This document shows positions 16,817 to 54,667 of a stretch of 64,000 nucleotides of DNA, one piece after another; position 1 is the first letter of the stretch; every line of letters starts with the position of its first letter. Where the stretch lies: the IMG/VR virus record IMGVR_UViG_3300012156_000141; one strand, given 5' to 3'. The position numbers were made by a program, and so were the translations under genes. The notes under the pieces were generated by a model. That model searched no databases, was not told the origin of the DNA, and saw only the letters and a list, made by a program, of their open reading frames with translations. The stretch is from a virus.

Positions 16817-16893
16817 AGTTAAAGCCATATATTTCTTGTTTTTGAATATCCCAAAATTCATACTAAAGTCAGGAAAATAGAAAGGAGATATTT

Positions 16894-19080
16894 ATGAAAC
16901 AAAAAAAACCAGATTATTTTACAATTATATTTACAGCAGTAGTGGGTTATCTTTTTGTTATTATTTTAGCATTACACTCTGGCCCAAGTTATTTGGAAAA
17001 GAAGAATGTTTTTACGGCAATAATAGAGGGTGCTTCATCACTAATAAATAGCCCAGCAAATATAGTTGTTAATTCAGGCACATTTATATGTTTAGCTTAC
17101 TATACCGTAATTTTTGCTTTTGTGGCATTATGGGCAAAAATACAAAGTGAAGTAAATGGGAAAATTGATAAAGAGCCGGGTGGTACTGCTAAGTTTGAAG
17201 TGAATTTTAAAAAATTTCAAAAAAAATATACCGATTTAAAAAATCCCTTCAACAATATTATCTTAACAGAAAATATAGCTTTAAACATGAACTCTTATCA
17301 AACTAGACGAAATAACAATGTATTAGTCGTCGGTGGCTCTGGCTCTGGTAAAACAAGATTCATGATTAAACCAAATTTGTTACAGGCAAATTGTTCATTT
17401 GTAATCACTGACCCAAAAGGTGAAATTTTGGAATCAGAAGGAGCAATGCTGGAAAAACATGGTTATCGTATCAAAGTATTTAATCTGGTGGATATGATGC
17501 ATTCCAATTCATATAACCCGTTTAAATACATAAGAGATGATTTAGGCGTTCTAATGATGATTAACTGCCTTATTAAAAATACAAATAATGGGCAAAAAGG
17601 TGGTGACCCATTCTGGGAAAAATCTGAAACAGCACTATTGCAAGCTTTGGTTTTCTATTTAAAAGACAATCCTTCAATACCTGATTCAGAGAAAAACTTC
17701 ACAGCTGTTATGAAACTTTTACAAGCAGCAGAAGTAAATGAAAACGACCCAAATACACAATCGCCATTAGATAAATTATTTGCAAAACTTGAAACTGAAC
17801 AACCCAATAGTATTGCCGTAAAACAATATAAAACATTTAAAATGGGTGCTGGAAAAACATTGAAATCAATTCTTATTTCCTGTGCGGTAAGATTAACCGT
17901 ATTTAACCTGCAGGAAATTGAAAATCTTACTATGATGGATGACTTAGAATTGAAACGTATTAGCGATGAGAAGACTGCTTTGTTCGTAGTTATTCCAGCA
18001 GCCGACGATACCTACAACTTCTTGGTATCTATGATGTACTCTCAATTATTTGAAACACTATATTATCATGCTGAAAATGAGTGCCCTTATGAATATTACA
18101 TTAAAGAAAGCAATGATGTATTAGCAATTGCTGAAAAAAATGAAAAGGGAGATAAGTATACTGAAAGAGATGCAAAAAGGTTATTGGAATCGATTAAACG
18201 AGCACCAATCAAAAGAAGTAATAAAGGTAAATATATAGTAAAAGCAAGAGGGTTTGAAAAAACATTTAATAGTGAAGAAAATGCTAAAGAATACAAAGCA
18301 AGAATAGATAAAGCTGAAATAGTGAGAGGTGCAATCAGACTACCTTATCCAGTAAGATTTCTGTTAGATGAATTTGCGAACATCGGCCAAATTCCAGATT
18401 TCACTAAAAAGCTCGCAACAATGAGGCAATATGAAATCAGCTGTACGATCATTCTTCAAAACTTAGCTCAGATTAAAACTATGTATAAAGATGATTGGGA
18501 ATCTATAGTTGGAAACTGTGATTCTTTCCTGTTTTTGGGTGGTCAAGAGTACTCAACTCTAGAATATATTTCTAAACTACTAGGGAAGACAACTATACAA
18601 AATAGAGGCAGAAGCAGAAACCGTAGCGCAAAAGGTGGTGGTTCTGGTTTGTCTATTCAAAATCAAGGAAAAGAGCTTATGGCTGTTAATGAAATATCAA
18701 CAATGCCTAAAGATGAGTGCTTACTGATTATAAATGGTATGAACCCATTTTATGATAAAAAATATAATTTGGAAAAGCACCCTCACTTTGATGAGAGTGG
18801 AGATTCTAAAAAAGGCAGCAAGTTTGATTGTAAGAAAAAAATCTTGAATTATGGATTGCAACAGCAAAATAAAAAAAATAAATTATCGGCAGGCGAAGAA
18901 ATTGGTGCAAATCAATACATTGGAAAAGCAGAGCAATTAGATCATGTATTCAAAGATAATAATATTAACTCTATTAGTGATGCTGTAGAGAGAATAACAT
19001 TAAAGAAGGGTCAGGTTATTGTAAATGAAAGTATTAACAAGGAAACTGGAGAAGCAGAGTTTGATTATAACATTGATTAA
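16894..19080 (+). CDS. virD4: Type IV coupling protein VirD4/TraG
   Basis: N-terminal TMs, GGSGSGKT, ITDPKGE, DPFWE, FLLDEFANIG, LQNLAQ. Confidence 0.95.
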   Translation: MKQKKPDYFTIIFTAVVGYLFVIILALHSGPSYLEKKNVFTAIIEGASSLINSPANIVVNSGTFICLAYYTVIFAFVALWAKIQSEVNGKIDKEPGGTAKFEVNFKKFQKKYTDLKNPFNNIILTENIALNMNSYQTRRNNNVLVVGGSGSGKTRFMIKPNLLQANCSFVITDPKGEILESEGAMLEKHGYRIKVFNLVDMMHSNSYNPFKYIRDDLGVLMMINCLIKNTNNGQKGGDPFWEKSETALLQALVFYLKDNPSIPDSEKNFTAVMKLLQAAEVNENDPNTQSPLDKLFAKLETEQPNSIAVKQYKTFKMGAGKTLKSILISCAVRLTVFNLQEIENLTMMDDLELKRISDEKTALFVVIPAADDTYNFLVSMMYSQLFETLYYHAENECPYEYYIKESNDVLAIAEKNEKGDKYTERDAKRLLESIKRAPIKRSNKGKYIVKARGFEKTFNSEENAKEYKARIDKAEIVRGAIRLPYPVRFLLDEFANIGQIPDFTKKLATMRQYEISCTIILQNLAQIKTMYKDDWESIVGNCDSFLFLGGQEYSTLEYISKLLGKTTIQNRGRSRNRSAKGGGSGLSIQNQGKELMAVNEISTMPKDECLLIINGMNPFYDKKYNLEKHPHFDESGDSKKGSKFDCKKKILNYGLQQQNKKNKLSAGEEIGANQYIGKAEQLDHVFKDNNINSISDAVERITLKKGQVIVNESINKETGEAEFDYNID

Positions 19081-19944: not shown

Positions 19945-20162
19945 AAGCAGAGTACCACATCCTCTAAGGGTGTGGGTGAATGCGTTCGATTTTACATACT
20001 ATTTAGAGGAAATAAAAGTAATTGGATTTTATGAGTTAAATAAAAGTATTCCGGTAAAACGGATAGCGGTCTAATGAACAGACCATGGCGGTACGAACCC
20101 TAACGGGTCACGGCTACCTGAAACTATCACTTCTAAGCATTGCGAAAGTGGTGGTAGTTCAT
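19945..20162 (+). mobile_element. Non-autonomous IS200/IS605 derivative: left-end hairpin plus TnpB-type right end/omegaRNA scaffold, no tnpB
   Basis: Hairpin CCACATCCT-CTA-AGGGTGTGG (19955-19975). 3' part CCGGTAAAACGGATAGCGGT...CTATCACTT..AAGTGGTGGTAGTTCAT. Bases 20025-20162 closely match the reverse complement of 48804-48944. Confidence 0.7.
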
Positions 20163-20178
20163 AAAAAGGAGTATTTAT

Positions 20179-20586
20179 ATGAGAACTATAAGTAAAAAGA
20201 ATATATGTATTTTTTTATTAACAATATTTTTGGGTATGTGTTTTTTTAATATTACAAATACTTATGCAACTAATACTTCAACTGAAGCAGCAGGAGAAAC
20301 AATGAGCGTTATAATAGGAGAAGGTGAGGAACTTAATATCGGAGGCGATAGCGATGCGGCGGGCCAATTAGAAGAATTTATTATTGGCTCTGACGATAAT
20401 CCTGGGTTTCTAGATATTGTATCGCAATTGGGTTTTGTGCTAATAGCCTTTGGCCTTGGCCAAATTTTTTTGGCATTTAAAGATGATAATGCAGATTCTA
20501 AAGCCAGAGGAGCAATGATCCTTTTAGGTGGAGTATTCTGTGTGATGATAAAAGTTATATTAGGAAGCATAGGTGTAACTTTATAG
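20179..20586 (+). CDS. VirB2/TrbC-like pilin, copy 3
   Basis: Signal-like leader and GQIFLAFKDDNADSKARGAMIL. Confidence 0.7.
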   Translation: MRTISKKNICIFLLTIFLGMCFFNITNTYATNTSTEAAGETMSVIIGEGEELNIGGDSDAAGQLEEFIIGSDDNPGFLDIVSQLGFVLIAFGLGQIFLAFKDDNADSKARGAMILLGGVFCVMIKVILGSIGVTL

Positions 20587-21880: not shown

Positions 21881-21947
21881 TTAAAATGCCTGGTTTTTGT
21901 AAATTCAAATTTCATAATAATTTTGAATATAAAATCAGGAGGGCTAT

Positions 21948-24503
21948 ATGTTTAAAAATAAAAAAGTTGAAAGGAATCTGGGATTTGGAAACACAGATGA
22001 GAATATTACGGAAAACCAACAAAACAAAAGTAATAATAAGGAAAAAGATAAATCTACTTCTAAAAAAGTAAAGAAGGGCAAAAAAAATAAAAACATAATT
22101 TCAATCCCTAAAACAGTTCAAGAATCAATTCCTTATCTTGCTGTATATAAAAATGGAATAATGGAGTTAGAGCCAGGTGTATTTTCTAAATCATACAAAT
22201 TGGAAGATGTAAATTTTAAAGTGGCAACAGACGAAGAACAACGTAAGATTTTTGATAGATATGTTGACTTTTTAAATACATTTGATTCAGACATTCGAAT
22301 TGAGTTGACAATTTTCAATAGAAATATTGATGAGGAACATATACGAAAAAAAATCCTCATTCCATATGGGCGAGATGGTTTAAATGAATATCGTGAAGAG
22401 TATAACGCGATGCTTCGAGATAAAATGAAAGAAGGACGAAATAATATCGTCAAAGAAAAATATATTACTTTGACTATGAATGCCATGGATTCAGAAGACG
22501 CTTTTACTAAGTTTTCCAAAATAGATGGTGAAGTTAGTGCATCTATTAAACGAATTAATGGAATTGATACAGAGCCAATGACAGCAGTTGAAAGACTTGA
22601 AGTGTTAGCAGACATTTATGGAGATAATGTAAACGGAAATGAATTCTATAGAAAAGTAAAAGTTGCTGATCAAGAAGTAAAAAGTTTTGATTTTTCATGG
22701 ATGTTAAAACAAGGTTTAACAACAAAAGATTTAATTGGACCGTCTTCATTTTCATTTGAAAGAGAATACTGCATGATTGGCGATAAATATGCAAAATCAT
22801 TATTTATTGATAATCTGCCAACATGGATTGACTCAAACATATTAACCGAGATTACAGAGTTAAATTCTAATATGTTAACGAGTATTGTATTTAGAAAATT
22901 AAGAGCAGATAAGGCATCAACCTTGCTAAAAAATCAGTTAATTAATATTAACTCTAACGTGGTAGATGCACAAAAACGTGCCGCTAAGGCAGGCTACAGT
23001 GCGGATTTAATTTCTCCAGAATTATTAAGAGCACAAAAAGAAGCACAGGTACTAATGGATGATCTTACATTAAATAATCAAAGTTTGATTTTAGCAACTT
23101 TTGTTATCACACTTATGGGTTCTACATTAGATGAGTTAAATAAAAACTTAGAATTGTTAAAAACAATCATGGGTAAATATATGTGTCAAATTAAAAGTTT
23201 AAATTTCCAACAGGAAAAAGGACTTTCAACAGCTCTTCCTTTGGGTCGCTGTGACGTATTTACTGATCGATTATTGACGACAGAATCAGCTGCAATTTTT
23301 ATTCCATTTTCATCGCAGGAATTATCACAAGTAAATGGAATGTACTATGGTCTAAATGCTGTATCGAAGAACTTAATCCTATTTAACCGAAAGAACTCTA
23401 AAAATGCTAATGGTGTTATTTTAGGAACACCTGGTAGTGGAAAGAGTTTCTCTGCTAAAAGAGAAATGGTAAACGTTATTTTAAATACCGATGATGATAT
23501 TTATATTATTGACCCAGAACGAGAGTACTTGCCTCTAGCAGAACTTTTAGGCGGTTCAGTAATAAGAATAGCTGCTGGTGGAACTACATATTTGAACCCT
23601 ATGGATATGGATATTGATTATGGCCGAGATGATGAAAAAGTTGCAACCGATCCCATCGCTATGAAGTGTGACTTTATCGCTGGTTTATGTGAGACAATGT
23701 CAGGTGATAAGAGAGCTTTATCTGCAACACAAAAATCAATCGTGGATAGATGTGTCAGAATTATGTATCAGCCATATTTGAAACATATGAGTGATGTTCA
23801 AAAGAAAGATCCAAGCATCACTTGTGATATTACTGCATCTCCAACCTTAAAAGAATTTTATGAGATGTTATTAGGTCAGCCAGAGTTTGAATCACAATCT
23901 TTGGCTTTGTCCCTGGAGCGTTTCTGTATAGGTTCATTAGATACTTTTGCTCATCGTACCAATGTGCAGCGTAATAATCGCTTTGTCGTTTACGATATTA
24001 AAGACATTGGCGATGGTATGAAGGAATTAGGCCTTCAGGTATGCCTGAATGCCGTATGGAATCAGATTATTGAAAATAAAAAGAAAAATCGTTATACATG
24101 GTTCTATCTTGATGAGTTTTACTTGCTGACACAAACTGCTTCTTCCGCGGCATTTTTACAACAGGTCTACAAAAGAGCTAGGAAGTGGCAAGGCATTCCG
24201 ACCGGGATTACGCAGAATGTTGGCGATCTACTCGCATCACCACAAGTCGTAGCCATTTTAAATAACTGTGATTTTATCATGATGCTAAATCAATCTCCAA
24301 TGGATAAAATGCAGTTAGCCCAATTGTTAAATATCAGTCCCACTCAGTTAAGTTATATTACCAACTCTGACCCTGGACAGGGATTAATTTATACCGGGAA
24401 ATCAATCGTACCATTTATAGATAAATTTCCAACTAACAATAAGTTATACAAGGTTATGACAACAAAACCAGATGACTTAAAGGAACAGACTCGTCAATAT
24501 TAA
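21948..24503 (+). CDS. virB4: VirB4-like conjugative ATPase
   Basis: GTPGSGKS, IIDPEREY, YLDEFY, KRARKWQGIPTGITQN. Confidence 0.95.
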   Translation: MFKNKKVERNLGFGNTDENITENQQNKSNNKEKDKSTSKKVKKGKKNKNIISIPKTVQESIPYLAVYKNGIMELEPGVFSKSYKLEDVNFKVATDEEQRKIFDRYVDFLNTFDSDIRIELTIFNRNIDEEHIRKKILIPYGRDGLNEYREEYNAMLRDKMKEGRNNIVKEKYITLTMNAMDSEDAFTKFSKIDGEVSASIKRINGIDTEPMTAVERLEVLADIYGDNVNGNEFYRKVKVADQEVKSFDFSWMLKQGLTTKDLIGPSSFSFEREYCMIGDKYAKSLFIDNLPTWIDSNILTEITELNSNMLTSIVFRKLRADKASTLLKNQLININSNVVDAQKRAAKAGYSADLISPELLRAQKEAQVLMDDLTLNNQSLILATFVITLMGSTLDELNKNLELLKTIMGKYMCQIKSLNFQQEKGLSTALPLGRCDVFTDRLLTTESAAIFIPFSSQELSQVNGMYYGLNAVSKNLILFNRKNSKNANGVILGTPGSGKSFSAKREMVNVILNTDDDIYIIDPEREYLPLAELLGGSVIRIAAGGTTYLNPMDMDIDYGRDDEKVATDPIAMKCDFIAGLCETMSGDKRALSATQKSIVDRCVRIMYQPYLKHMSDVQKKDPSITCDITASPTLKEFYEMLLGQPEFESQSLALSLERFCIGSLDTFAHRTNVQRNNRFVVYDIKDIGDGMKELGLQVCLNAVWNQIIENKKKNRYTWFYLDEFYLLTQTASSAAFLQQVYKRARKWQGIPTGITQNVGDLLASPQVVAILNNCDFIMMLNQSPMDKMQLAQLLNISPTQLSYITNSDPGQGLIYTGKSIVPFIDKFPTNNKLYKVMTTKPDDLKEQTRQY

Positions 24504-31319: not shown

Positions 31320-31346
31320 AAAGTAGGGAAAAATCCCTACTTTTCT
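31319..31346. terminator. Bidirectional terminator
   Basis: AAAAGTAGGGA-AAAA-TCCCTACTTTT between convergent genes. Confidence 0.8.
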
Positions 31347-32350
31347 TCTATGCTTTTAGAGTTGTATTTTCCTTTTTCGTATGCATTCTTACCGGTTAAT
31401 ACTAACTGATCTACTAAATTAACGATTGGCTCTTTATCATCTTGCACAGAAATACCTTTGATTAAATTTTCATATGTTTCACATTTTTCCTTGACGGTTT
31501 GGATAGAACCATATTCTCTTTCTAGTTCATCATAAGCATCCACCTTAATCTGATATTTGTTGAAAAACTCTTTATTTAAATGGCTTACTTCATTTTTGAT
31601 TGTCTGTTTCATTCCAAGGTTTAAATTCTCGTATTTATTTTCATAATACATAGCTTTTAAATTAGCATCTTTAAAAAGTTCATTTGTTCGTTGTCGATAT
31701 TCTTGTATGCATTCAGAATCTTTAGGTGGAGGAAGATCCCGCTGAATGGTTGCATTAAGTGAAGCATAATATCTTTTTATATCCTGATGCCTAGCTGTTG
31801 AATTTTTGATACCTCGATTTAAATTATGTTCCTTTTTCATTAATTTTCCATATGAATCCTGGAGTTCTATCATTTTTTGCCGACTCCTTACATAATAACG
31901 TGCATTTAGATTTCCTTTGTCATCAATTGGGACAACAATAGCATGACAATGAACATTTCCCTCTTCATCACCATGATATACAACAGAAAGTACATTGTCA
32001 CCATATTTAGGATTAGCATTAAATTCCTTCCTTAACCAATCAACATTATCTTTCTTCCATTTTTCTATGTCAACATTTTCTCTATCTTCTCGCGAAAAAG
32101 TTGTAATTACCTCAAAAGCATAAACCGCATTTGAACGTATTTTTTTATCAGAGCCATAACCCAGTGTTTTAGTATGTTCTTCAAATGCTTCTTTATAAGT
32201 TTTTCCATTCAAAGAAACTAATTCTTCATTTAAGTGCTCTTTATCTGGATCGGCATTCAATACATCAGCTTTTCGATAATTATGATTGTATTTACCAGCA
32301 AGCTTATTGAAACTTTTTACTTTTTCCAATGTCATAAAACAATATCCCAT
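31337..32350 (-). CDS. MOB_V (Pre/MobV) relaxase
   Basis: N-terminal NHNYR, NAVYAFEVITTFS, VVYHGDEEGNVHCHAIVVP (H-x-DE...H-x-H), QDSYG, GLKRG-like NLNRGIK. Confidence 0.85.
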   Translation of the reverse strand: MGYCFMTLEKVKSFNKLAGKYNHNYRKADVLNADPDKEHLNEELVSLNGKTYKEAFEEHTKTLGYGSDKKIRSNAVYAFEVITTFSREDRENVDIEKWKKDNVDWLRKEFNANPKYGDNVLSVVYHGDEEGNVHCHAIVVPIDDKGNLNARYYVRSRQKMIELQDSYGKLMKKEHNLNRGIKNSTARHQDIKRYYASLNATIQRDLPPPKDSECIQEYRQRTNELFKDANLKAMYYENKYENLNLGMKQTIKNEVSHLNKEFFNKYQIKVDAYDELEREYGSIQTVKEKCETYENLIKGISVQDDKEPIVNLVDQLVLTGKNAYEKGKYNSKSIEEK

Positions 32351-32543
32351 AAAAACCTCCTTTTGGTTTTTAATAGAATGTGTAAATATAAATTCAAATA
32401 AAAGTTATTTGCGTATATGCAATAATGATTAAAATACAAAAAGTAAGATGATTTAGTAAAAACGATTTAAAGAATTATGAATTATTCTTTTGTTTTTTGA
32501 AAAATATTTTCTAACATAATAAAGATAAAAGGATGGTGTGCTT

Positions 32544-37158: not shown

Positions 37159-37476
37159 TCCTCATTCCTTTTTTCTTAACAAATTTCTTTTACATTATTA
37201 TTATGGTGTATTTTTTTTGAGATGACACCTAATTTTAGAAAAAAACTAAAAAATATATTTTCTTTCACACAATTCCCGGAAGAGTATCGTACCCTTAAAG
37301 TATTGTCTATTACTAAATTGAAATATAAAATGTAATTTAATTATATACTATAGTTCTTCAAAATGAAATATTATTGTCAGAAAACAAAAGAAATATAAAT
37401 TAAATTATTAATATCGTTTTAATTAATACTCTATGCAGATTCTTGCATAATGTTCATGATAAGGGAAGGAGTGGGC

Positions 37477-46320: not shown

Positions 46321-46379
46321 GTCCAAAATATAATATCTGACATACTAATAATAAACTATATTTCATTTGGAGGTATTTG

Positions 46380-48737
46380 ATGAATTCAAAATTAAACGAG
46401 ATATTATTAAACCGCAAAGACATGATTTCTATTAACTATGAAAAGGATGATTCCTCGGAATTAGATAAATGGCTTATTGCTGCCACTGCATCAAAAAATT
46501 TAGAGGGCTTAGGTTATAAGTTTTCATCTAGACTAATTGAACAACTAAAGAAAACCTCTGTAGAAGAAATTTTAGAAATTGAAAATCAGATTTCAGCTAA
46601 TATAGAAAACAGACAAGGAGACGATGTTGATTATAAGCCAATGTATCCGGGTTTTCCTGATAGCGTGATGGATAAGTCAAAGGCAGAGTTGTATTTAGAT
46701 GCTATCATTTATGCAGAAAGCGGATTTAAGACATTACCTCTGGAATATGAGTTCTATGGAAAAGAAAAAAAAGAAGAGGTAATCAATTTATCAAAAAAAC
46801 TTCAAAATTTAAAGACAATTGATGTTGGAACACAAAAGGATGTAATTGAAATTGCAGTTAATCTAATGTCTTCACCAATTGCCTATTCACCAGATGATAA
46901 ATGTGATTTGGCTATAATCTCAAAAGAAGTTAAATCATTTAAAAAGAATATTCCAGGTAAAATTCCTAATAAAGAGAACTTGGCCTGGATGGCAGCCTCA
47001 TTAGCTAGACAAGATAGAAAAAATTCATTTATAGTACATTTGACCAGTGCAACAGATATTTTAAGGGCATTAACTGTCCGCAATGGAGGAGACGCATCAT
47101 TAACTCAACCAGTAAAATTCGGAAAGATACCCGCTTATGAAGTGAAACAATATGCTATACAATTAGCAAAAGTAAAAAATATTGAAAAAGATATATCTCA
47201 AAGACCAGAAACTTTTAAAAGAGTTTTTAAACAATATCATCTACCAAATATGTATAAAACACAGCTAAAAAGTGAACTAAGTATGGAATCTCGGGATAAG
47301 ATGATTGCTGTCTCGAATCACTTGTATGAGGATAAATTGGAACCAACCTTTGAGGCACGAAGAAATCAATTGATTAAAGAAAATGATTTCAAATCTTTAA
47401 TCAATTTGTATTACGCTGTTCCGGGAAAATTGGCTGCAGATATGGATTATATTTTGATTCTGGCTGATAAAATAGCTAAAGACCATAGTGATTATATAGC
47501 CGGAAAAGAAAAAAATTATGCCGAAGTTTGCAAAGTGTTTAATTCTGTAGTAAACAGAATTGCGCCAAACACATTATTAAGAATGCAATCAGCAATTGGT
47601 GAAAGAACAGCTGAAAAACAATATCGTGTATATGCAGCAAATAAAGGGTTGAGCAATCCTTACATGAAAGAAGATACACGTAATCCGTTACCTAAAAAAA
47701 TTGTTGAAAGTATAAATAATATTATTGATAATGACCTGTCAATGAGGTATTCTAAAAAAAGACCGTTAGGAAAAGTTTATTTAGATGATGATTTGAAAAA
47801 TGTCAAAATCCCTTCAGCTCAAAGAACTAATTCAAAAGGAGCACAGACCTTAAGTTATGGTTCTCAAATAGATATTAGAAAAAATACAGAGAAGTTAAGA
47901 AGCTTTATATGGTGGACTAACGCTGGACATGATAGTATTGACATTGATTTGTCTGCAACATTTTATGATGAGAACTGGAGAAAATTCACCGATGTTTCTT
48001 ATTACAATCTCAAGGGTAATGGATATGGTGTCCATTCTGGAGATATTAGGGATGGCGGTAGTCCTAATGGAAAAGGTGCAGCTGAGTTTATAGATGTTGA
48101 TTTGTCGAACTTAAAAGCAAAAAATGTTGGATATGTAGTTTTTTCAGTGAATAACTTTAGTGAACATACCTTCAGTAATACACCATGTAAATTTGGTTGG
48201 ATGGAATTGGAAGAAAAAGAAAATTTCTTATTTGATCCACTAGCAGTGCAAAAGACAGTTAACTTAAATTGTCCTAGTACAAAAGCAATAACAATGACCT
48301 TGGATGTAGAAAACGAAAAAATTATCTGGATGGATAGAAATCCAAGAAACGTGAAAACCTTTGTTATTAATCATAAAGCCAATAATGTAGAAACACATGC
48401 TAGTTCAATGATGGTAGAGGCTTATAAAGCAATTAATTTGCCAGCACCATCTTTGCACCATTTAATGTCTTTACATATCATGTCAAGAGGTGAGTTAGTA
48501 GAAGATCCTAAAGAGGCAGATGTTATTTTTAGTCTCAACCGAATTAATGAACCAAAGGAATTTCCTAATATGAAAGAGAATATTTGCGCATATGACAATG
48601 ACGTAATATTAGGAGATCTGCTATCTACAGAATTATCCATGAAGGATACAGAATACTTTGAGAAACTTGCAAAGCAAATGGAAACAGATAAAGTCAAAGA
48701 AAATCTAGAACCTTCAAAAGATGGAATAACAAAATAG
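46380..48737 (+). CDS. Large TerD-domain protein (helical N-terminal region plus C-terminal TerD)
   Basis: FIWWTN..IDIDLSA..SYYNL..VHSGDIRDG..GAAEFIDVDL. N-terminal ENLAW..SATDILR. Confidence 0.75.
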   Translation: MNSKLNEILLNRKDMISINYEKDDSSELDKWLIAATASKNLEGLGYKFSSRLIEQLKKTSVEEILEIENQISANIENRQGDDVDYKPMYPGFPDSVMDKSKAELYLDAIIYAESGFKTLPLEYEFYGKEKKEEVINLSKKLQNLKTIDVGTQKDVIEIAVNLMSSPIAYSPDDKCDLAIISKEVKSFKKNIPGKIPNKENLAWMAASLARQDRKNSFIVHLTSATDILRALTVRNGGDASLTQPVKFGKIPAYEVKQYAIQLAKVKNIEKDISQRPETFKRVFKQYHLPNMYKTQLKSELSMESRDKMIAVSNHLYEDKLEPTFEARRNQLIKENDFKSLINLYYAVPGKLAADMDYILILADKIAKDHSDYIAGKEKNYAEVCKVFNSVVNRIAPNTLLRMQSAIGERTAEKQYRVYAANKGLSNPYMKEDTRNPLPKKIVESINNIIDNDLSMRYSKKRPLGKVYLDDDLKNVKIPSAQRTNSKGAQTLSYGSQIDIRKNTEKLRSFIWWTNAGHDSIDIDLSATFYDENWRKFTDVSYYNLKGNGYGVHSGDIRDGGSPNGKGAAEFIDVDLSNLKAKNVGYVVFSVNNFSEHTFSNTPCKFGWMELEEKENFLFDPLAVQKTVNLNCPSTKAITMTLDVENEKIIWMDRNPRNVKTFVINHKANNVETHASSMMVEAYKAINLPAPSLHHLMSLHIMSRGELVEDPKEADVIFSLNRINEPKEFPNMKENICAYDNDVILGDLLSTELSMKDTEYFEKLAKQMETDKVKENLEPSKDGITK

Positions 48738-48799: not shown

Positions 48800-48803
48800 A
48801 CCT

Positions 48804-48944
48804 ATGAGCTACCACCACTTTCGCAAAGCTTAGAAGTGATGGTTTCAGGTAGCATTGACCCACTAAGGTTCGTACTACCACGGTCTGTCCATCAGACCGC
48901 TATCCGTTTTACCGGAATACTTTTATTTAATTCATAGTAAAATC
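48804..48944 (-). mobile_element. Orphan TnpB-type IS200/IS605 right end/omegaRNA scaffold
   Basis: Inverted copy of 20025-20162. Hairpins GGTCTG..CAGACC and CCATCACTT..AAGTGGTGG, ending GTAGCTCAT. Confidence 0.7.
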
Positions 48945-49395: not shown

Positions 49396-49545
49396 GAAAA
49401 ACTCCTTTCAAATGTATATTTGTAAATAGTATGTTGGGTAGACTTTATATTAAAATGAAATTTTAAATTATATAGTGAGAAATGTAAAAGTATAAGACCA
49501 AAGATTGCATTATATAAAAAGAAATATAATATCTGGGAGGAATTT

Positions 49546-51291
49546 ATGAATAAAAAAGAGTTAAATGCGAGTTGTATAAATATATTAATGATGTCAGAAG
49601 AGCTTATCTCTGATTACACTGAAGAGAAAACAGAATCACTTAGTAATGCTCGGTTTGAAGAAGAAGAAATCTTCTATGAGCAAAGTTATAATAAGCTTAT
49701 TGATTCTTGTGCAAAAATAAAAAATAATGCTTTGATTTTTTTTCTCTTAAATAAAAATGAAGCAAAGTGTGAGTTAATAGACCCACAAACCTATGAGATA
49801 TCTACAGAATACGGGAAGCACCAAATTGCAGTAAGTCAATTAAAAAGTTTATTGGGCAAAGACTTTAATGCTATAACAAAAAAGATAAAAGGTCAAGAGG
49901 ATAGTGCAAAGAAACAAAAAGAAGAAAAACCAGTAAAACAAGGTGAATCCAGTTGTACTGGAGTTCGAAGCTCGACAAGTCGAGTTTGCATAACACCAAC
50001 TCCAATAGAACAAGGTCCTGTAGATAAACAACAGCCCGAGTCAAAAGAACCTAAGATAGAGAAGTCTAAAGTAATCGAGCCCAAGATAGCAAAGCCTATT
50101 GCAGCTGAGTCAGTTAATCCTAAAAAGAAAAATAACACAAAAAAACAAAAGGAAGATAAAAAACAAAAAGCTGACTTTGATTCTAACACTGTCCCAGACC
50201 TTGATTTTTCGCTTGATTTTATGGATGATGAATTCGAAGATTTATTACTACAGGAAAATGATATTGAGATAGCTATAAAAAAACCGGTTTGGAATCCAAT
50301 CTCTAAACCTGTAAGGAATAAAGAACAACTATTAGAAAATAAAGCAGAAAACCAGATTATTGCAGAGAAAGAGTCAGAGCCAAAGATTCCGAAAGTGATA
50401 GTTCGGGATCCAAAAGAATCAGAGGTTCTAGCTACTAATCATATTTTATTAAAGAAACCTAAAAAAACAGAAATTAGAAATGACGGTGAATCGGAAGAGA
50501 CTAAAGCTGAAAAGGTAAAAGGAATAATGGTTTCTTCTAAAAAAATAAAACAGAACAGCCCGGCAGAAGAAATAGAAGAAGATATTCCCATCATCTCAGA
50601 TAATGATGATAAGCTAACTAATTTCATTCAGCCTCGAACTCCGATGAAATCGGATTTGCCAGCTAATGGATTTACTAATAGCAATATGCAAATCGAAAAT
50701 GCAGATAACATAGTTATTTCAAAACAAGATTTGATTATAGACAATTACCTTATTACCTATATGAATCAGAACAAAGAAAAGGTTAAAACGGTTTCTATAT
50801 TAGTAACACCTTTAAAACTAGATGCTCAGCAGAGTAATGCGATTCCTATAATGGTTATTGCAAAAAGTGGAAGAGAGGTAAAGACTGTTGTTTCTCAGAA
50901 TATAGAAAGACCATCAATTCCCATTACAATTGGTGATGAAACCTTTATTATCAGAGGAAGTTATAATGAATCAGGATTCCAGACATTATTATATTCCAAG
51001 GGTGATAATAATTATGAGACAAAGAAAGAATTACATAAGATTCGCCCTAGAATAATAGAGAACAATAGCCACAATACAAAAGTTGTAGGAGATGATATTA
51101 TTCATATCTTTCCACTTTCGACTAAAAATAATGGAGAGAACTATGTGAAAGTGTTAGTTTGCATAGAAAATAAAAAAAATAAAAGTTTCCAAACAGAATT
51201 AACCTCACATAATAATTTCATGATGGGTAATTATGAAATATCAAATAGTTGGAATGGTGACAAATTAGACACAAAAATAAAAATAAAATGA
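49546..51291 (+). CDS. Hypothetical protein with two ordered regions joined by a long K/E/P-rich linker
   Basis: 581 aa, GGAGG RBS, preceded by CATTATA. Confidence 0.75.
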   Translation: MNKKELNASCINILMMSEELISDYTEEKTESLSNARFEEEEIFYEQSYNKLIDSCAKIKNNALIFFLLNKNEAKCELIDPQTYEISTEYGKHQIAVSQLKSLLGKDFNAITKKIKGQEDSAKKQKEEKPVKQGESSCTGVRSSTSRVCITPTPIEQGPVDKQQPESKEPKIEKSKVIEPKIAKPIAAESVNPKKKNNTKKQKEDKKQKADFDSNTVPDLDFSLDFMDDEFEDLLLQENDIEIAIKKPVWNPISKPVRNKEQLLENKAENQIIAEKESEPKIPKVIVRDPKESEVLATNHILLKKPKKTEIRNDGESEETKAEKVKGIMVSSKKIKQNSPAEEIEEDIPIISDNDDKLTNFIQPRTPMKSDLPANGFTNSNMQIENADNIVISKQDLIIDNYLITYMNQNKEKVKTVSILVTPLKLDAQQSNAIPIMVIAKSGREVKTVVSQNIERPSIPITIGDETFIIRGSYNESGFQTLLYSKGDNNYETKKELHKIRPRIIENNSHNTKVVGDDIIHIFPLSTKNNGENYVKVLVCIENKKNKSFQTELTSHNNFMMGNYEISNSWNGDKLDTKIKIK

Positions 51292-51293
51292 TG

Positions 51294-51322
51294 TTGACAC
51301 AGACTGTGTTCGGGTTTATAAT
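51294..51322 (+). promoter_or_regulatory. Perfect consensus sigmaA promoter upstream of the sigma-factor operon
   Basis: TTGACA (51294-51299), 17-nt spacer, TATAAT (51317-51322). Confidence 0.85.
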
Positions 51323-51431
51323 TAACATCACAAAAGCAAACAGATGTTCGAAAAAATAAATAATCCCACAAGTTAACATTTTGCTTGGATTAAACTATAA
51401 TATATATGCTAATGTTTAGGAGGAATGAAAT

Positions 51432-51650
51432 ATGGAGAATGTTGAAAAGTTATATGAGAACATATCAAATATGATCTTAAAAGAAGATGTTGAACCATCA
51501 GCGTCTCCGATAGAGATGTATAACTACTGGGTACAAAAAAGCGGAGTATGTGTCGATAATTTAGCACTGGCTTCTAGATTACTTGATTTTATCGAAGAGG
51601 CTTTGGTAAATAAAAATATTTTATCAGAATTTTGCAAAGGAGGGAACTAA
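51432..51650 (+). CDS. Small hypothetical protein coupled to the sigma gene
   Basis: AGGAGG RBS. Its stop directly abuts the sigma ATG. Confidence 0.7.
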   Translation: MENVEKLYENISNMILKEDVEPSASPIEMYNYWVQKSGVCVDNLALASRLLDFIEEALVNKNILSEFCKGGN

Positions 51651-52775
51651 ATGCTAGACGAGATTTTTTTACTGGAAGCTATTGAAGATGATGAGGTTGA
51701 TTCATTAGATGATGTCGATGCTGATATAGATGATGATACTGATATTGTTGAGAAAGCAAAAAAGCAGGATGATCTTAGTAAAGAAGAGCGGAGTCAAATT
51801 TTTATTGATATTATGAGTCGATATAATCAGGGCAAACAAATTGCTAAACCTGCAGTAATTACGATTAAAAGTATATTAAAACTTGATGAATCAGCAAAAT
51901 TACCAAATATTATTTGGAAAAAAGAAATAGTCGATGAGATTGACCAAGTCGAATATAAAGAGGCTGTAAGCGAATATAATAGAGGGATGCAAATAACTCT
52001 TGATGCTAAGGCAGAATTGTTAGAGAAACTTGATCATTGGATCTATTATGTAATCAATAAGCACTTCCCTACATTTAAACTTCATACAAAGGATCTTTAT
52101 CAGGAAGGAGTCATTGGAATCCTAAAAGGTATTGATAACTATGATGCAAAAAGAAGTATGCCAACCACCTATTTTTTTTTCTACGTAAGACATGAGATGA
52201 CAGAATATATTAATTCTAATATCAATAAGACAACATCTCATTACTCTACTAGCATCGTAAAAGTTAAAAAAGCAATTAATCATTTTGCTAGAGAAGGTCG
52301 GGAGTGGACAATAACTGATATTGCCCAGGAAACAGGGTTATCGACAGAAACAATTATGCAGGCTGTTAAAATTATGGAATACAGCAAAGAAAAGCACTAT
52401 GATTCGGTTGATTACCTTGACTCTGAAATTAGTCAAAATGTTGCATCACCAGAAATAGAAATCCTTAAAAATGAAGCGAATGAAATCCTATATAATGCGG
52501 TCAGATCTTTACCAGAAGATGAAGCTTCGATTATTGTTCTGAAATATGGAGAGAGTTTATCATATAAAAATATTGCAGAGAAATTAAACATTCCGATTGA
52601 TAAGGTGAAAAAGAAAAAAAACTCTGCAATCAGAAAACTGAGAAAGAATAAAACAATTCATGGTAACTTCAACCTAAATAAAGAGGATAAAGCAATTAAC
52701 TCAAAAGAACTTGGTGTTATCCCAATAAGTGTTGGCGAAAATATTATGGAACAGCTCTTAGCAGAAGAAATATAA
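51651..52775 (+). CDS. RNA polymerase sigma-70 family factor, group 3 (SigB/SigF/SigG-like)
   Basis: Region 2 DLYQEGVIGILKGIDNYD, region 3 TITDIAQETGLS, region 4 LPEDEASIIVLKY..SYKNIAEKL..AIRKLR, acidic N-terminus. Confidence 0.9.
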   Translation: MLDEIFLLEAIEDDEVDSLDDVDADIDDDTDIVEKAKKQDDLSKEERSQIFIDIMSRYNQGKQIAKPAVITIKSILKLDESAKLPNIIWKKEIVDEIDQVEYKEAVSEYNRGMQITLDAKAELLEKLDHWIYYVINKHFPTFKLHTKDLYQEGVIGILKGIDNYDAKRSMPTTYFFFYVRHEMTEYINSNINKTTSHYSTSIVKVKKAINHFAREGREWTITDIAQETGLSTETIMQAVKIMEYSKEKHYDSVDYLDSEISQNVASPEIEILKNEANEILYNAVRSLPEDEASIIVLKYGESLSYKNIAEKLNIPIDKVKKKKNSAIRKLRKNKTIHGNFNLNKEDKAINSKELGVIPISVGENIMEQLLAEEI

Positions 52776-52936
52776 GTGAACTACCTACCACTTAAATACT
52801 GACGGCTTTTGAAGTGGATGCAAATCCGTCTTTGACGGCGTTCAACCATATCACTGACGTGGTTGCTTCTGAAAGGGAGCCTGTTTACCAGACTAAGCTA
52901 CAGAAATCTCACCGCTTAAGGAGGTGGAGTATTCTT
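52776..52936 (+). mobile_element. Non-autonomous IS200/IS605 derivative with an IscB/HEARO-type omegaRNA 5' part
   Basis: Starts GTGAACTACC. Four internal hairpins, then GTTTACCAGACTAAGC (52883-52898), then a terminal hairpin CTCACC..GGTGGAGTATTCT. Confidence 0.6.
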
Positions 52937-52990
52937 TAAAATGATAAAAAACAGGCATCTCACTTAGTGATATGTCTGTTTTTATTACGA

Positions 52991-54595: not shown

Positions 54596-54667
54596 GAGTT
54601 CTCACTCTTTTTATTTTGTTTTTTTTTACACCATTATATACACAAATACAGATATAAGGAGGTTTAA

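Follow-up and report, generated by a model that had tools for sequence, protein, structure and literature searches.

The operon at positions 51,294 to 52,775 of IMG/VR virus record IMGVR_UViG_3300012156_000141 is probably the master regulatory operon of a conjugative plasmid-like element. It encodes a 72-aa protein and a divergent factor of the sigma-70 family, and it is preceded by two promoters of the type read by the host sigma factor SigA (sigmaA). The sigma factor that it encodes is the best candidate reader of a separate promoter motif, CATnnTA, which precedes most other transcription units of the element. The stretch analyzed here, called the window below, is 64 kb of a 246.5-kb contig that carries the sigma gene. 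The promoters, the LexA operators in relatives, the pairing of the two genes, the geometry of the CATnnTA motif and the fact that it is confined to the element, as well as the position of a characteristic histidine in the sigma factor all come from the sequence and its comparison with related loci.

Host-type promoters of the sigma operon

The promoter P1 matches the sigmaA consensus exactly, and its -35 hexamer starts 2 nt after the end of the stop codon of the upstream gene, which encodes a 581-aa protein. It is the sole 12/12 match in the window, where a search of both strands for TTGACA-N16-18-TATAAT found this one copy and 0.14 were expected. A lone perfect pair of hexamers is not rare in 64 kb, because 13 of 100 shuffles contained at least one somewhere. 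In the 200 nt that precede the small open reading frame (ORF), none of 2000 shuffles reached 12/12. The second promoter, P2, matches at 11 of 12 positions and ends 30 nt before the start codon of the 72-aa ORF. The window contains six intergenic sigmaA-like sites that match at 10 or more of 12 positions, and the two best of these, P1 and P2, both lie in the 140-nt leader.

An earlier note, made from the letters of the window, had described TTGACA-N17-TATAAT ahead of the 72-aa ORF and the sigma gene, a second TATAAT near 51396, and a leader free of CATnnTA. All three observations hold: P1 is exact, the second TATAAT is paired with a TTAACA across a 17-nt spacer, and CATnnTA is absent between 51292 and 51431. 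The note had also stated that the sigma operon alone has a perfect sigmaA promoter. This is true of the 12/12 match, with the nuance that 10/12 sites also occur before a few other units, namely hsp20 on the minus strand and the operon at 37450.

Related loci (designated by L numbers) were collected through the sigma factor and, independently, through a profile of the small protein, with which 1.84 billion representatives were searched. The sigma family comprises approximately 75 clusters at 40-60% identity, all metagenomic, on contigs of up to 455 kb. Across 15 lineages, a small ORF of the same family (60-82 aa) lies directly before the sigma gene. The 200 nt before this ORF contain a 12/12 sigmaA consensus in seven of the 15 lineages (the window, L004, L008/L010, L003/L019/L025, L057, L058 and L059) and an 11/12 match in five of them (L015, L002/L014, L026-L032, L060). 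The position of P1 is conserved in the alignment of relatives, and TTAACA-N16/17-TATAAT, the arrangement of P2, is conserved in L004, L008, L010 and L015. Because a host-type promoter recurs ahead of the same gene pair in all these lineages, it is a hallmark of the module. Chance was considered as the origin of P1 and is rejected by the comparative data together with the shuffles, in which each 12/12 case was reached in at most two of 2000 trials.

One of these loci, L004, comes from a cultured bacterium. It lies on a 151-kb contig of 32% GC, probably a plasmid, of the isolate Lacrimispora amygdalina src4. In this locus an IS605-type insertion parts the small partner gene from the sigma gene. 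The inserted IS605 OrfB/TnpB-like gene (8841-9700 of L004) also separates sigma from its LexA-controlled promoter.

The CATnnTA motif

The 5.4 kb of intergenic DNA in the window contain 26 sense and 10 antisense copies of CAT[AT][ACT]TA, and the motif is 7.6-fold enriched there over coding sequence. The distance from a site to the start codon is 17-57 nt, and many of the sites directly follow a terminator. They head 22 of the 34 upstream regions in the window, and the motif is also found ahead of all five minus-strand genes. In an alignment of 25 sites, with the C of the motif taken as -12, A-11, T-10, T-7 and A-6 are invariant, the fifth base of the motif is never G, +1 is a purine in every site, and T is present at -1 in 16 of the 25. 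The aligned sites have no conserved -35: they are only T-rich at -33/-32, -29 and -27, with a weak CTTA just upstream. The motif is thus laid out like a -10 element of the sigma-70 type in which C replaces T at -12.

The motif is private to elements that carry the sigma gene. In the Lacrimispora element contig it is present in 50 of 116 upstream regions, compared with 5 of 92 in 160 kb sampled from the chromosome. Genes of other loci that carry the sigma are also preceded by it, at sigma identities as low as 29% and at GC contents of 24-41%.

The gene directly upstream of the sigma operon has a CATTATA promoter of its own, and no plus-strand terminator was found between 46314 and 52912. Because the upstream gene has this promoter and there is no terminator before the operon, the sigma operon probably receives read-through from it, which would give positive feedback. 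In addition, a CATAATA is located at 51206-51212, in the 3' end of the upstream gene and 88 nt before P1. At this position the relatives encode different amino acids (HNN and HTR) and keep the CATnnTA match, as CATAATA in L004 and as CATACTA in L008/L010. The site may be an internal self-dependent promoter.

The sigma factor

The 374-aa sigma factor consists of an acidic N-terminus followed by regions 2, 3 (weak) and 4. Region 2 scores 33.1 bits with PF04542 (cut-off 24), the helix-turn-helix of region 4 scores 54.3 bits with PF04545 (cut-off 24.1), and the general model TIGR02937 gives 85.9 against a cut-off of 42.9. All models of named subfamilies and equivalogs (SigB/F/G, FliA/WhiG, RpoD and the extracytoplasmic function groups) score far below their cut-offs, with 63.9 against 234 for SigBFG, 64.5 against 190 for FliA_WhiG, and 41.6 against 372 bits and 36.2 against 457 bits for SigF and SigG. 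Among proteins of solved structure, FliA and SigF are the closest (E-values of 1e-13 to 1e-9). Searches of phage and plasmid proteins yielded no close relative, only generic sigmas at 22-27% identity, and the protein matches the generic phage sigma family phrog_351. Plasmids of 235-276 kb from Clostridium botulinum and C. sporogenes (H14-H30) encode a sigma-70 protein that is approximately 25-26% identical over 56% of the element sigma.

In a profile-profile alignment of the family with primary sigma factors (probability 98.6%), H181 of the element sigma stands opposite the Q of WWIRQAI, which is Q437 of sigma70, and T184 stands opposite sigma70 T440. At the positions of Y430, W433 and W434 the element sigma has Y, F and Y. 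All 27 sequences of the family alignment have H181, and the histidine is also present in every distant member that was checked (L033, L035, L037, L038, L058, L059 and L060). Q437H is one of only two known changes in sigma70 that suppress a T-to-C change at -12 (PMC2613000). The -12C that marks the element promoters matches the residue known to switch -12 preference, and this provides a putative mechanistic link between the sigma factor and the motif that is independent of gene order. The element sigma is therefore the best candidate reader of the CATnnTA units.

LexA boxes in the leader

The closest relatives have a perfect LexA box of the form GAAC-N4-GTTC within the P1 spacer: cGAACATACGTTCt in L004, GAACATATGTTC in L008/L010 and GAACGTATGTTC in L015. 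Two boxes are present in L002/L014, with AAACATATGTTC in the spacer and GAACATACGTTT just downstream. In the window, the spacer contains a decayed copy, AGACTGTGTTC, and a second box, CAAACAGATGTTCG, follows P1 and precedes P2. The latter is the sole site in the 64 kb with at most one mismatch to the 14-mer and the sole intergenic GAAC-N4-GTTY. L002 has a box at the same place.

The cultured host of L004 has the corresponding repressor. L. amygdalina src4 encodes LexA (239 bits), and its lexA gene has three GAAC-N4-GTTC-type boxes in the preceding 160 nt. The 3.6-kb lexA locus contains five box matches where 0.17 are expected. The strict 14-mer box occurs five times in the 5.5-Mb genome, and one of these occurrences is in the sigma-operon promoter of L004. 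From these comparisons P1 appears to be SOS-gated, firmly so in the relatives and plausibly in the window copy. P2 is probably constitutive, because it lies downstream of the LexA box, and would provide a low supply of the sigma operon transcript.

The 72-aa partner protein

The small ORF ends in a TAA that is directly followed, in the same frame, by the ATG of the sigma gene. Given its recurrence before sigma in the related loci, the small protein is a conserved partner of the sigma factor. The profile search returned 160 representatives at E <=1e-3, nearly all of them free-standing and 55-120 aa long, and no fusions to sigma were found among these matches. A word-based homology search with the 72-aa protein recovered only itself, and there is no match in Pfam, NCBIfam or PHROG. 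AlphaFold predicts a confident four-helix structure (predicted local distance difference test, pLDDT, of 85.5). Fold searches with this model gave generic helical matches only, both in Foldseek (best E 2.6 in pdb) and in ESM Atlas; the wide VIA search likewise found generic small helical domains (best Z 6.8).

The net charge of the partner proteins is mostly acidic, with exceptions among the members. The protein was also considered as a DNA mimic, a reading that is unsupported since the acidic charge is not found in every member. The placement of the partner gene, upstream of sigma and translationally coupled to it, recalls RsbW/SigB and SpoIIAB/SigF; no link to either was found. The earlier note had proposed the 72-aa protein as a candidate anti-sigma or co-factor. 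It is conserved as a partner across lineages, and no anti-sigma family or fold was matched. We consider it a candidate co-factor, chaperone or anti-sigma.

Proposed mechanism and alternative explanations

We propose the following sequence of events, which taken as a whole we regard as probable. Host polymerase with SigA would start at the tandem promoters, the perfect P1 with LexA operators overlapping or following it and the near-consensus P2 downstream of the operator. The transcript would encode the small acidic four-helix partner and the translationally coupled sigma factor, which would direct core polymerase to private CAT[AT][ACT]TA promoters that have a purine at +1 and lack a conserved -35. 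Such promoters would head nearly all units for transfer, surface proteins, nucleotide metabolism and replication on both strands, and their -12C would be read by the family-wide histidine that replaces Q437 of sigma70. The sigma factor would probably reinforce its own synthesis through the promoter of the upstream gene, with no terminator between. LexA repression would be relieved by DNA damage or when the element enters a new cell, and the element as a whole would then be switched on. In this scheme we infer which factor reads which promoter, the binding of LexA to the window copy, the feedback loop and the timing. The earlier note had suggested that host polymerase makes the sigma factor, which then switches on the CATnnTA units. 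The conserved host-type promoter, the histidine at Q437 and the private -10 motif give that suggestion good support at the sequence level, with the amendments that the operon is probably LexA-gated rather than simply read first and that feedback is probably added.

A more far-reaching formulation would describe a three-part module of a hitherto unknown type: an operon gated by SigA and LexA, a natural Q437H-type sigma acting on -35-less, -12C extended -10 promoters, and an obligate small acidic partner representing a new class of co-factor or host-sigma appropriator. Together these would make up an orthogonal transcription system of Firmicute megaplasmids that is fired by DNA damage or cell entry. 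We put this forward tentatively, as a possibility that is still doubtful.

Several observations weigh against the proposed mechanism. Three relatives have CATnnTA instead of a sigmaA promoter ahead of the sigma operon; the motif is located before the small ORF in L037 and before sigma in L001 and L035, and L001 has no small ORF. In the window, the alignment shows that the spacer box is decayed, with its left half-site altered at two positions and 1 nt deleted, the box that follows P1 has one core mismatch, and P2 lies downstream of that box and escapes it. GAAC-N4-GTTY is also not enriched in the window (3 found, 3.1 expected). Some of these points would fit a sigma operon that is expressed constitutively from strong host promoters, with insulated steady transcription and no temporal cascade, the LexA sites of the window copy being relics. 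The sigmaA promoters of L003/L019, L026-L032 and L057-L060, which are not accompanied by a LexA box, point in the same direction, as do the position of P2 behind the sole good box and the decay of the spacer box. However, perfect operators are kept within the spacer in three lineages, and the box at +9 to +22 is retained in both the window and L002. There is also a precedent in the plasmid factor SigN, discussed below, for combining a strong promoter under LexA repression with a weak constitutive promoter, and a competing sigma that is expressed without check is reported to be toxic there (PMC10601692). We therefore consider purely constitutive expression unlikely.

The other alternatives concern the factor that reads CATnnTA. 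Bacillus subtilis sigmaG promoters have a -35 of GnATR and a -10 of CATnnTA with A, C or T at the fifth position, so the -10 motif of the element is identical to this consensus, and the isolate host Lacrimispora has a SigG-like gene (427 bits). Both facts weigh against a private reader. A host alternative sigma, above all the forespore factor SigG, could read the motif, in which case the element would be expressed in sporulation and its own sigma would serve another, smaller regulon. However, there is no GnATR at 17-18 nt upstream of the element sites, where T dominates and A is found in only 3-4 of 25. The motif heads 22 of 34 upstream regions in the window as compared with about 5% of those sampled from the host chromosome, and in elements that range from 24 to 41% GC it accompanies the His-type sigma. 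Moreover, SigF/G-type proteins have Gly in region 2.4 where the element family has His (alignment to 1l0o). A reading by SigG is accordingly quite improbable. The remaining candidate would be another factor encoded by the element, such as a second sigma, with the 374-aa sigma reading a different class of promoter. The Lacrimispora element does have a second sigma-70 gene (271 aa; C23:87642-88457, which is L045 7642-8457), so that an element of this family may encode two or more private sigma factors, and the window covers 64 kb of the 246-kb contig. Yet this second sigma has Ala at the Q437 position, sits behind a CATATTA approximately 50 nt upstream, and has no homologue in the window, where neither a polymerase-type DxDGD motif nor a second repeated upstream motif was found. 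The presence of Ala at that position and of its own CATATTA suggests that the second sigma is a target rather than a reader and possibly a third tier of the cascade, and we regard a different element-encoded reader as highly improbable. The gene for the second sigma adjoins genes for a RecD-like helicase and a zinc-finger primase-like protein.

Features of the window

The window belongs to a large conjugative element that is plasmid-like and comes from a low-GC gut Firmicute. It has a GC content of 33%, and coding is almost all on the plus strand, with five minus-strand genes that include the relaxase and hsp20. In addition to the genes in Table 1, the window encodes a 1417-aa lysozyme/NlpC-P60 protein, a sortase, a thioester/SpaA adhesin, two proteins with single-stranded DNA-binding (SSB) domains, a DnaQ-like exonuclease and enzymes of nucleotide metabolism. 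No virion genes and no tRNAs were found in the 64 kb, and a DNA search against 72,556 plasmids gave no match for the window.

Table 1. Coordinates of the sigma operon, its control sites and selected genes and promoters of the window
Feature	Position	Strand	Remarks
T4SS (type IV secretion system) coupling protein gene	16894-19080		
Candidate regulon site CATACTA	16859-16865	+	29 nt before T4SS coupling protein gene
VirB4-like ATPase gene	21948-24503		
Candidate regulon site CATAATA	21913-21919	+	29 nt before VirB4-like ATPase gene
Mob_Pre relaxase gene	31337-32350	-	
Candidate regulon site CATTCTA	32368-32380 (approximate)	-	about 24 nt before Mob_Pre relaxase gene
Putative private promoter CATTATA of upstream 581-aa gene (49546-51291)	49508-49514	+	32 nt before start codon
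P1, perfect sigmaA-type promoter TTGACA-N17-TATAAT	51294-51322	+	-35 at 51294-51299, -10 at 51317-51322
Decayed LexA box AGACTGTGTTC in P1 spacer	51301-51311		from alignment to perfect GAAC-N4-GTTC of relatives
LexA (Cheo-type) box CAAACAGATGTTCG	51337-51350		13/14 to consensus; about +9 to +22 of P1, upstream of P2
P2, sigmaA-type promoter TTAACA-N17-TATAAT	51373-51401	+	11/12; TTAACA at 51373-51378, TATAAT at 51396-51401
72-aa ORF, small acidic four-helix partner protein (predicted)	51432-51650	+	AGGAGG 8 nt upstream
374-aa divergent sigma-70 family factor gene	51651-52775	+	GGAGGG upstream
Structured 3' region	52776-52987	+	starts right after sigma stop codon; multi-branch fold to about 52933
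Candidate regulon site CATTATA	54632-54638	+	30 nt before DnaE-type polymerase gene
DnaE-type polymerase gene, 1373 aa	54668-58789		

The region 3' of the sigma gene is structured. A stretch of approximately 155 nt that is richer in GC forms a closed multi-branch fold (z -3.06), and none of 200 shuffles folds as well. It is followed by a terminator hairpin at about 52942-52987 that is common to the convergent gene. No Rfam match for the region was found, nor was a copy identified among the related loci compared. An Rfam scan of the whole window likewise gave nothing at gathering score, and only noise at E <1 between 51200 and 53100.

In the window, L002 and L014, a gene for a 786-aa protein is syntenic with hsp20, with the gene that precedes the small ORF and with the sigma operon. 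The 786-aa protein (46377-48737, plus strand) matches the MXAN_6230/SCO0854 RING-domain family below the cut-off (291 against 600 bits) and also matches phrog_33734. Finally, a structured-looking element of 134 nt is found in two copies with 90% identity, at 20030-20163 on the plus strand ahead of the gene cluster at 20179 and at 48803-48936 on the minus strand downstream of hsp20. It has no Rfam match.

Relation to known systems

The earlier note had likened the proposed cascade to those of large Bacillus phages. The closest known wiring is instead that of SigN (ZpdN), encoded by the B. subtilis plasmid pBS32, whose plasmid-confined regulon includes genes for replication and nucleotide metabolism (Burton et al. 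2019, PMC6751061). SigN resembles the element sigma in being plasmid-encoded with a regulon confined to the plasmid, as is predicted for the element, and the control proposed here for the element sigma gene is also similar. SigN is expressed from a LexA-repressed strong promoter and a weak constitutive one. In the window, as read from the sequence alone, the counterpart would be a 13/14 operator at +9 to +22 and a decayed box in the spacer. The second, weaker, operator-free SigA promoter of SigN is matched at the sequence level by P2, and its self-dependent feedback promoter would correspond to the CATTATA at 49508, from which read-through is predicted in the absence of a terminator.

Homology between the two sigma factors is undetectable by BLASTP (E 1.4) and by hhalign (probability 18.8% over 48 columns). 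SigN is a protein of 199 aa with a two-block promoter, whereas the element sigma is 374 aa long and has an acidic N-terminus and region 3. The zpcR promoter of pBS32 has TTTACG and GATATAAT at a spacing of approximately 17 nt. Unlike SigN, the element sigma is associated with a -12C -10 element that has no clear -35 and with a conserved small partner gene, and it belongs to a conjugative element rather than to a prophage-like plasmid.

The cascade of phage SPO1 (gp28, then gp33/gp34) is an established case in which host polymerase first makes a mobile-element sigma that redirects core polymerase to the promoters of the element. SPO1-type phages are a looser analogy here, as the element is conjugative, has no virion genes in the window, appears to be under LexA control and does not imply replacement of host transcription. 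The Q437H and T440I changes of E. coli sigma70 are laboratory suppressors in a primary sigma, in which His at the residue that faces base pair -12 permits C there (PMC2613000), whereas the element family has His naturally and would meet C at -12. The sigmaG promoters of B. subtilis share the -10 consensus; however, the element lacks the sigmaG -35 and its sigma differs in region 2.4.

Large conjugative plasmids of Bacillota with sortase-anchored surface modules have been described from the human gut as 'Hodor' megaplasmids, which are often mistaken for huge phages and are rare in plasmid databases (2026 preprint, PMC12934698). They are comparable to the element described here in size, conjugation and surface modules. 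However, they have a GC content of 45-47%, Rep_3 and a MOBH-like relaxase, as compared with 33% GC and Mob_Pre in the window. The words sigma, promoter and LexA are all absent from the text of that preprint. The LexA operators in the P1 spacer of relatives, the predicted -12C -10 geometry and the family-wide His at Q437 appear to be new here.

If the proposed mechanism is correct, almost an entire conjugative megaplasmid, including its functions in transfer, surface display, replication and nucleotide metabolism, would be under the control of one private sigma factor, and the sigma gene would be the single point of host control. This would explain how such elements can remain silent and then be expressed all at once. 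The substitution of His for Gln would provide a one-residue rationale for an orthogonal -10 code, and the CATnnTA motif would provide a rule for annotating promoters and regulons in a class of gut elements of which plasmid databases contain few examples. The model would be directly testable in a cultured carrier, Lacrimispora amygdalina src4.

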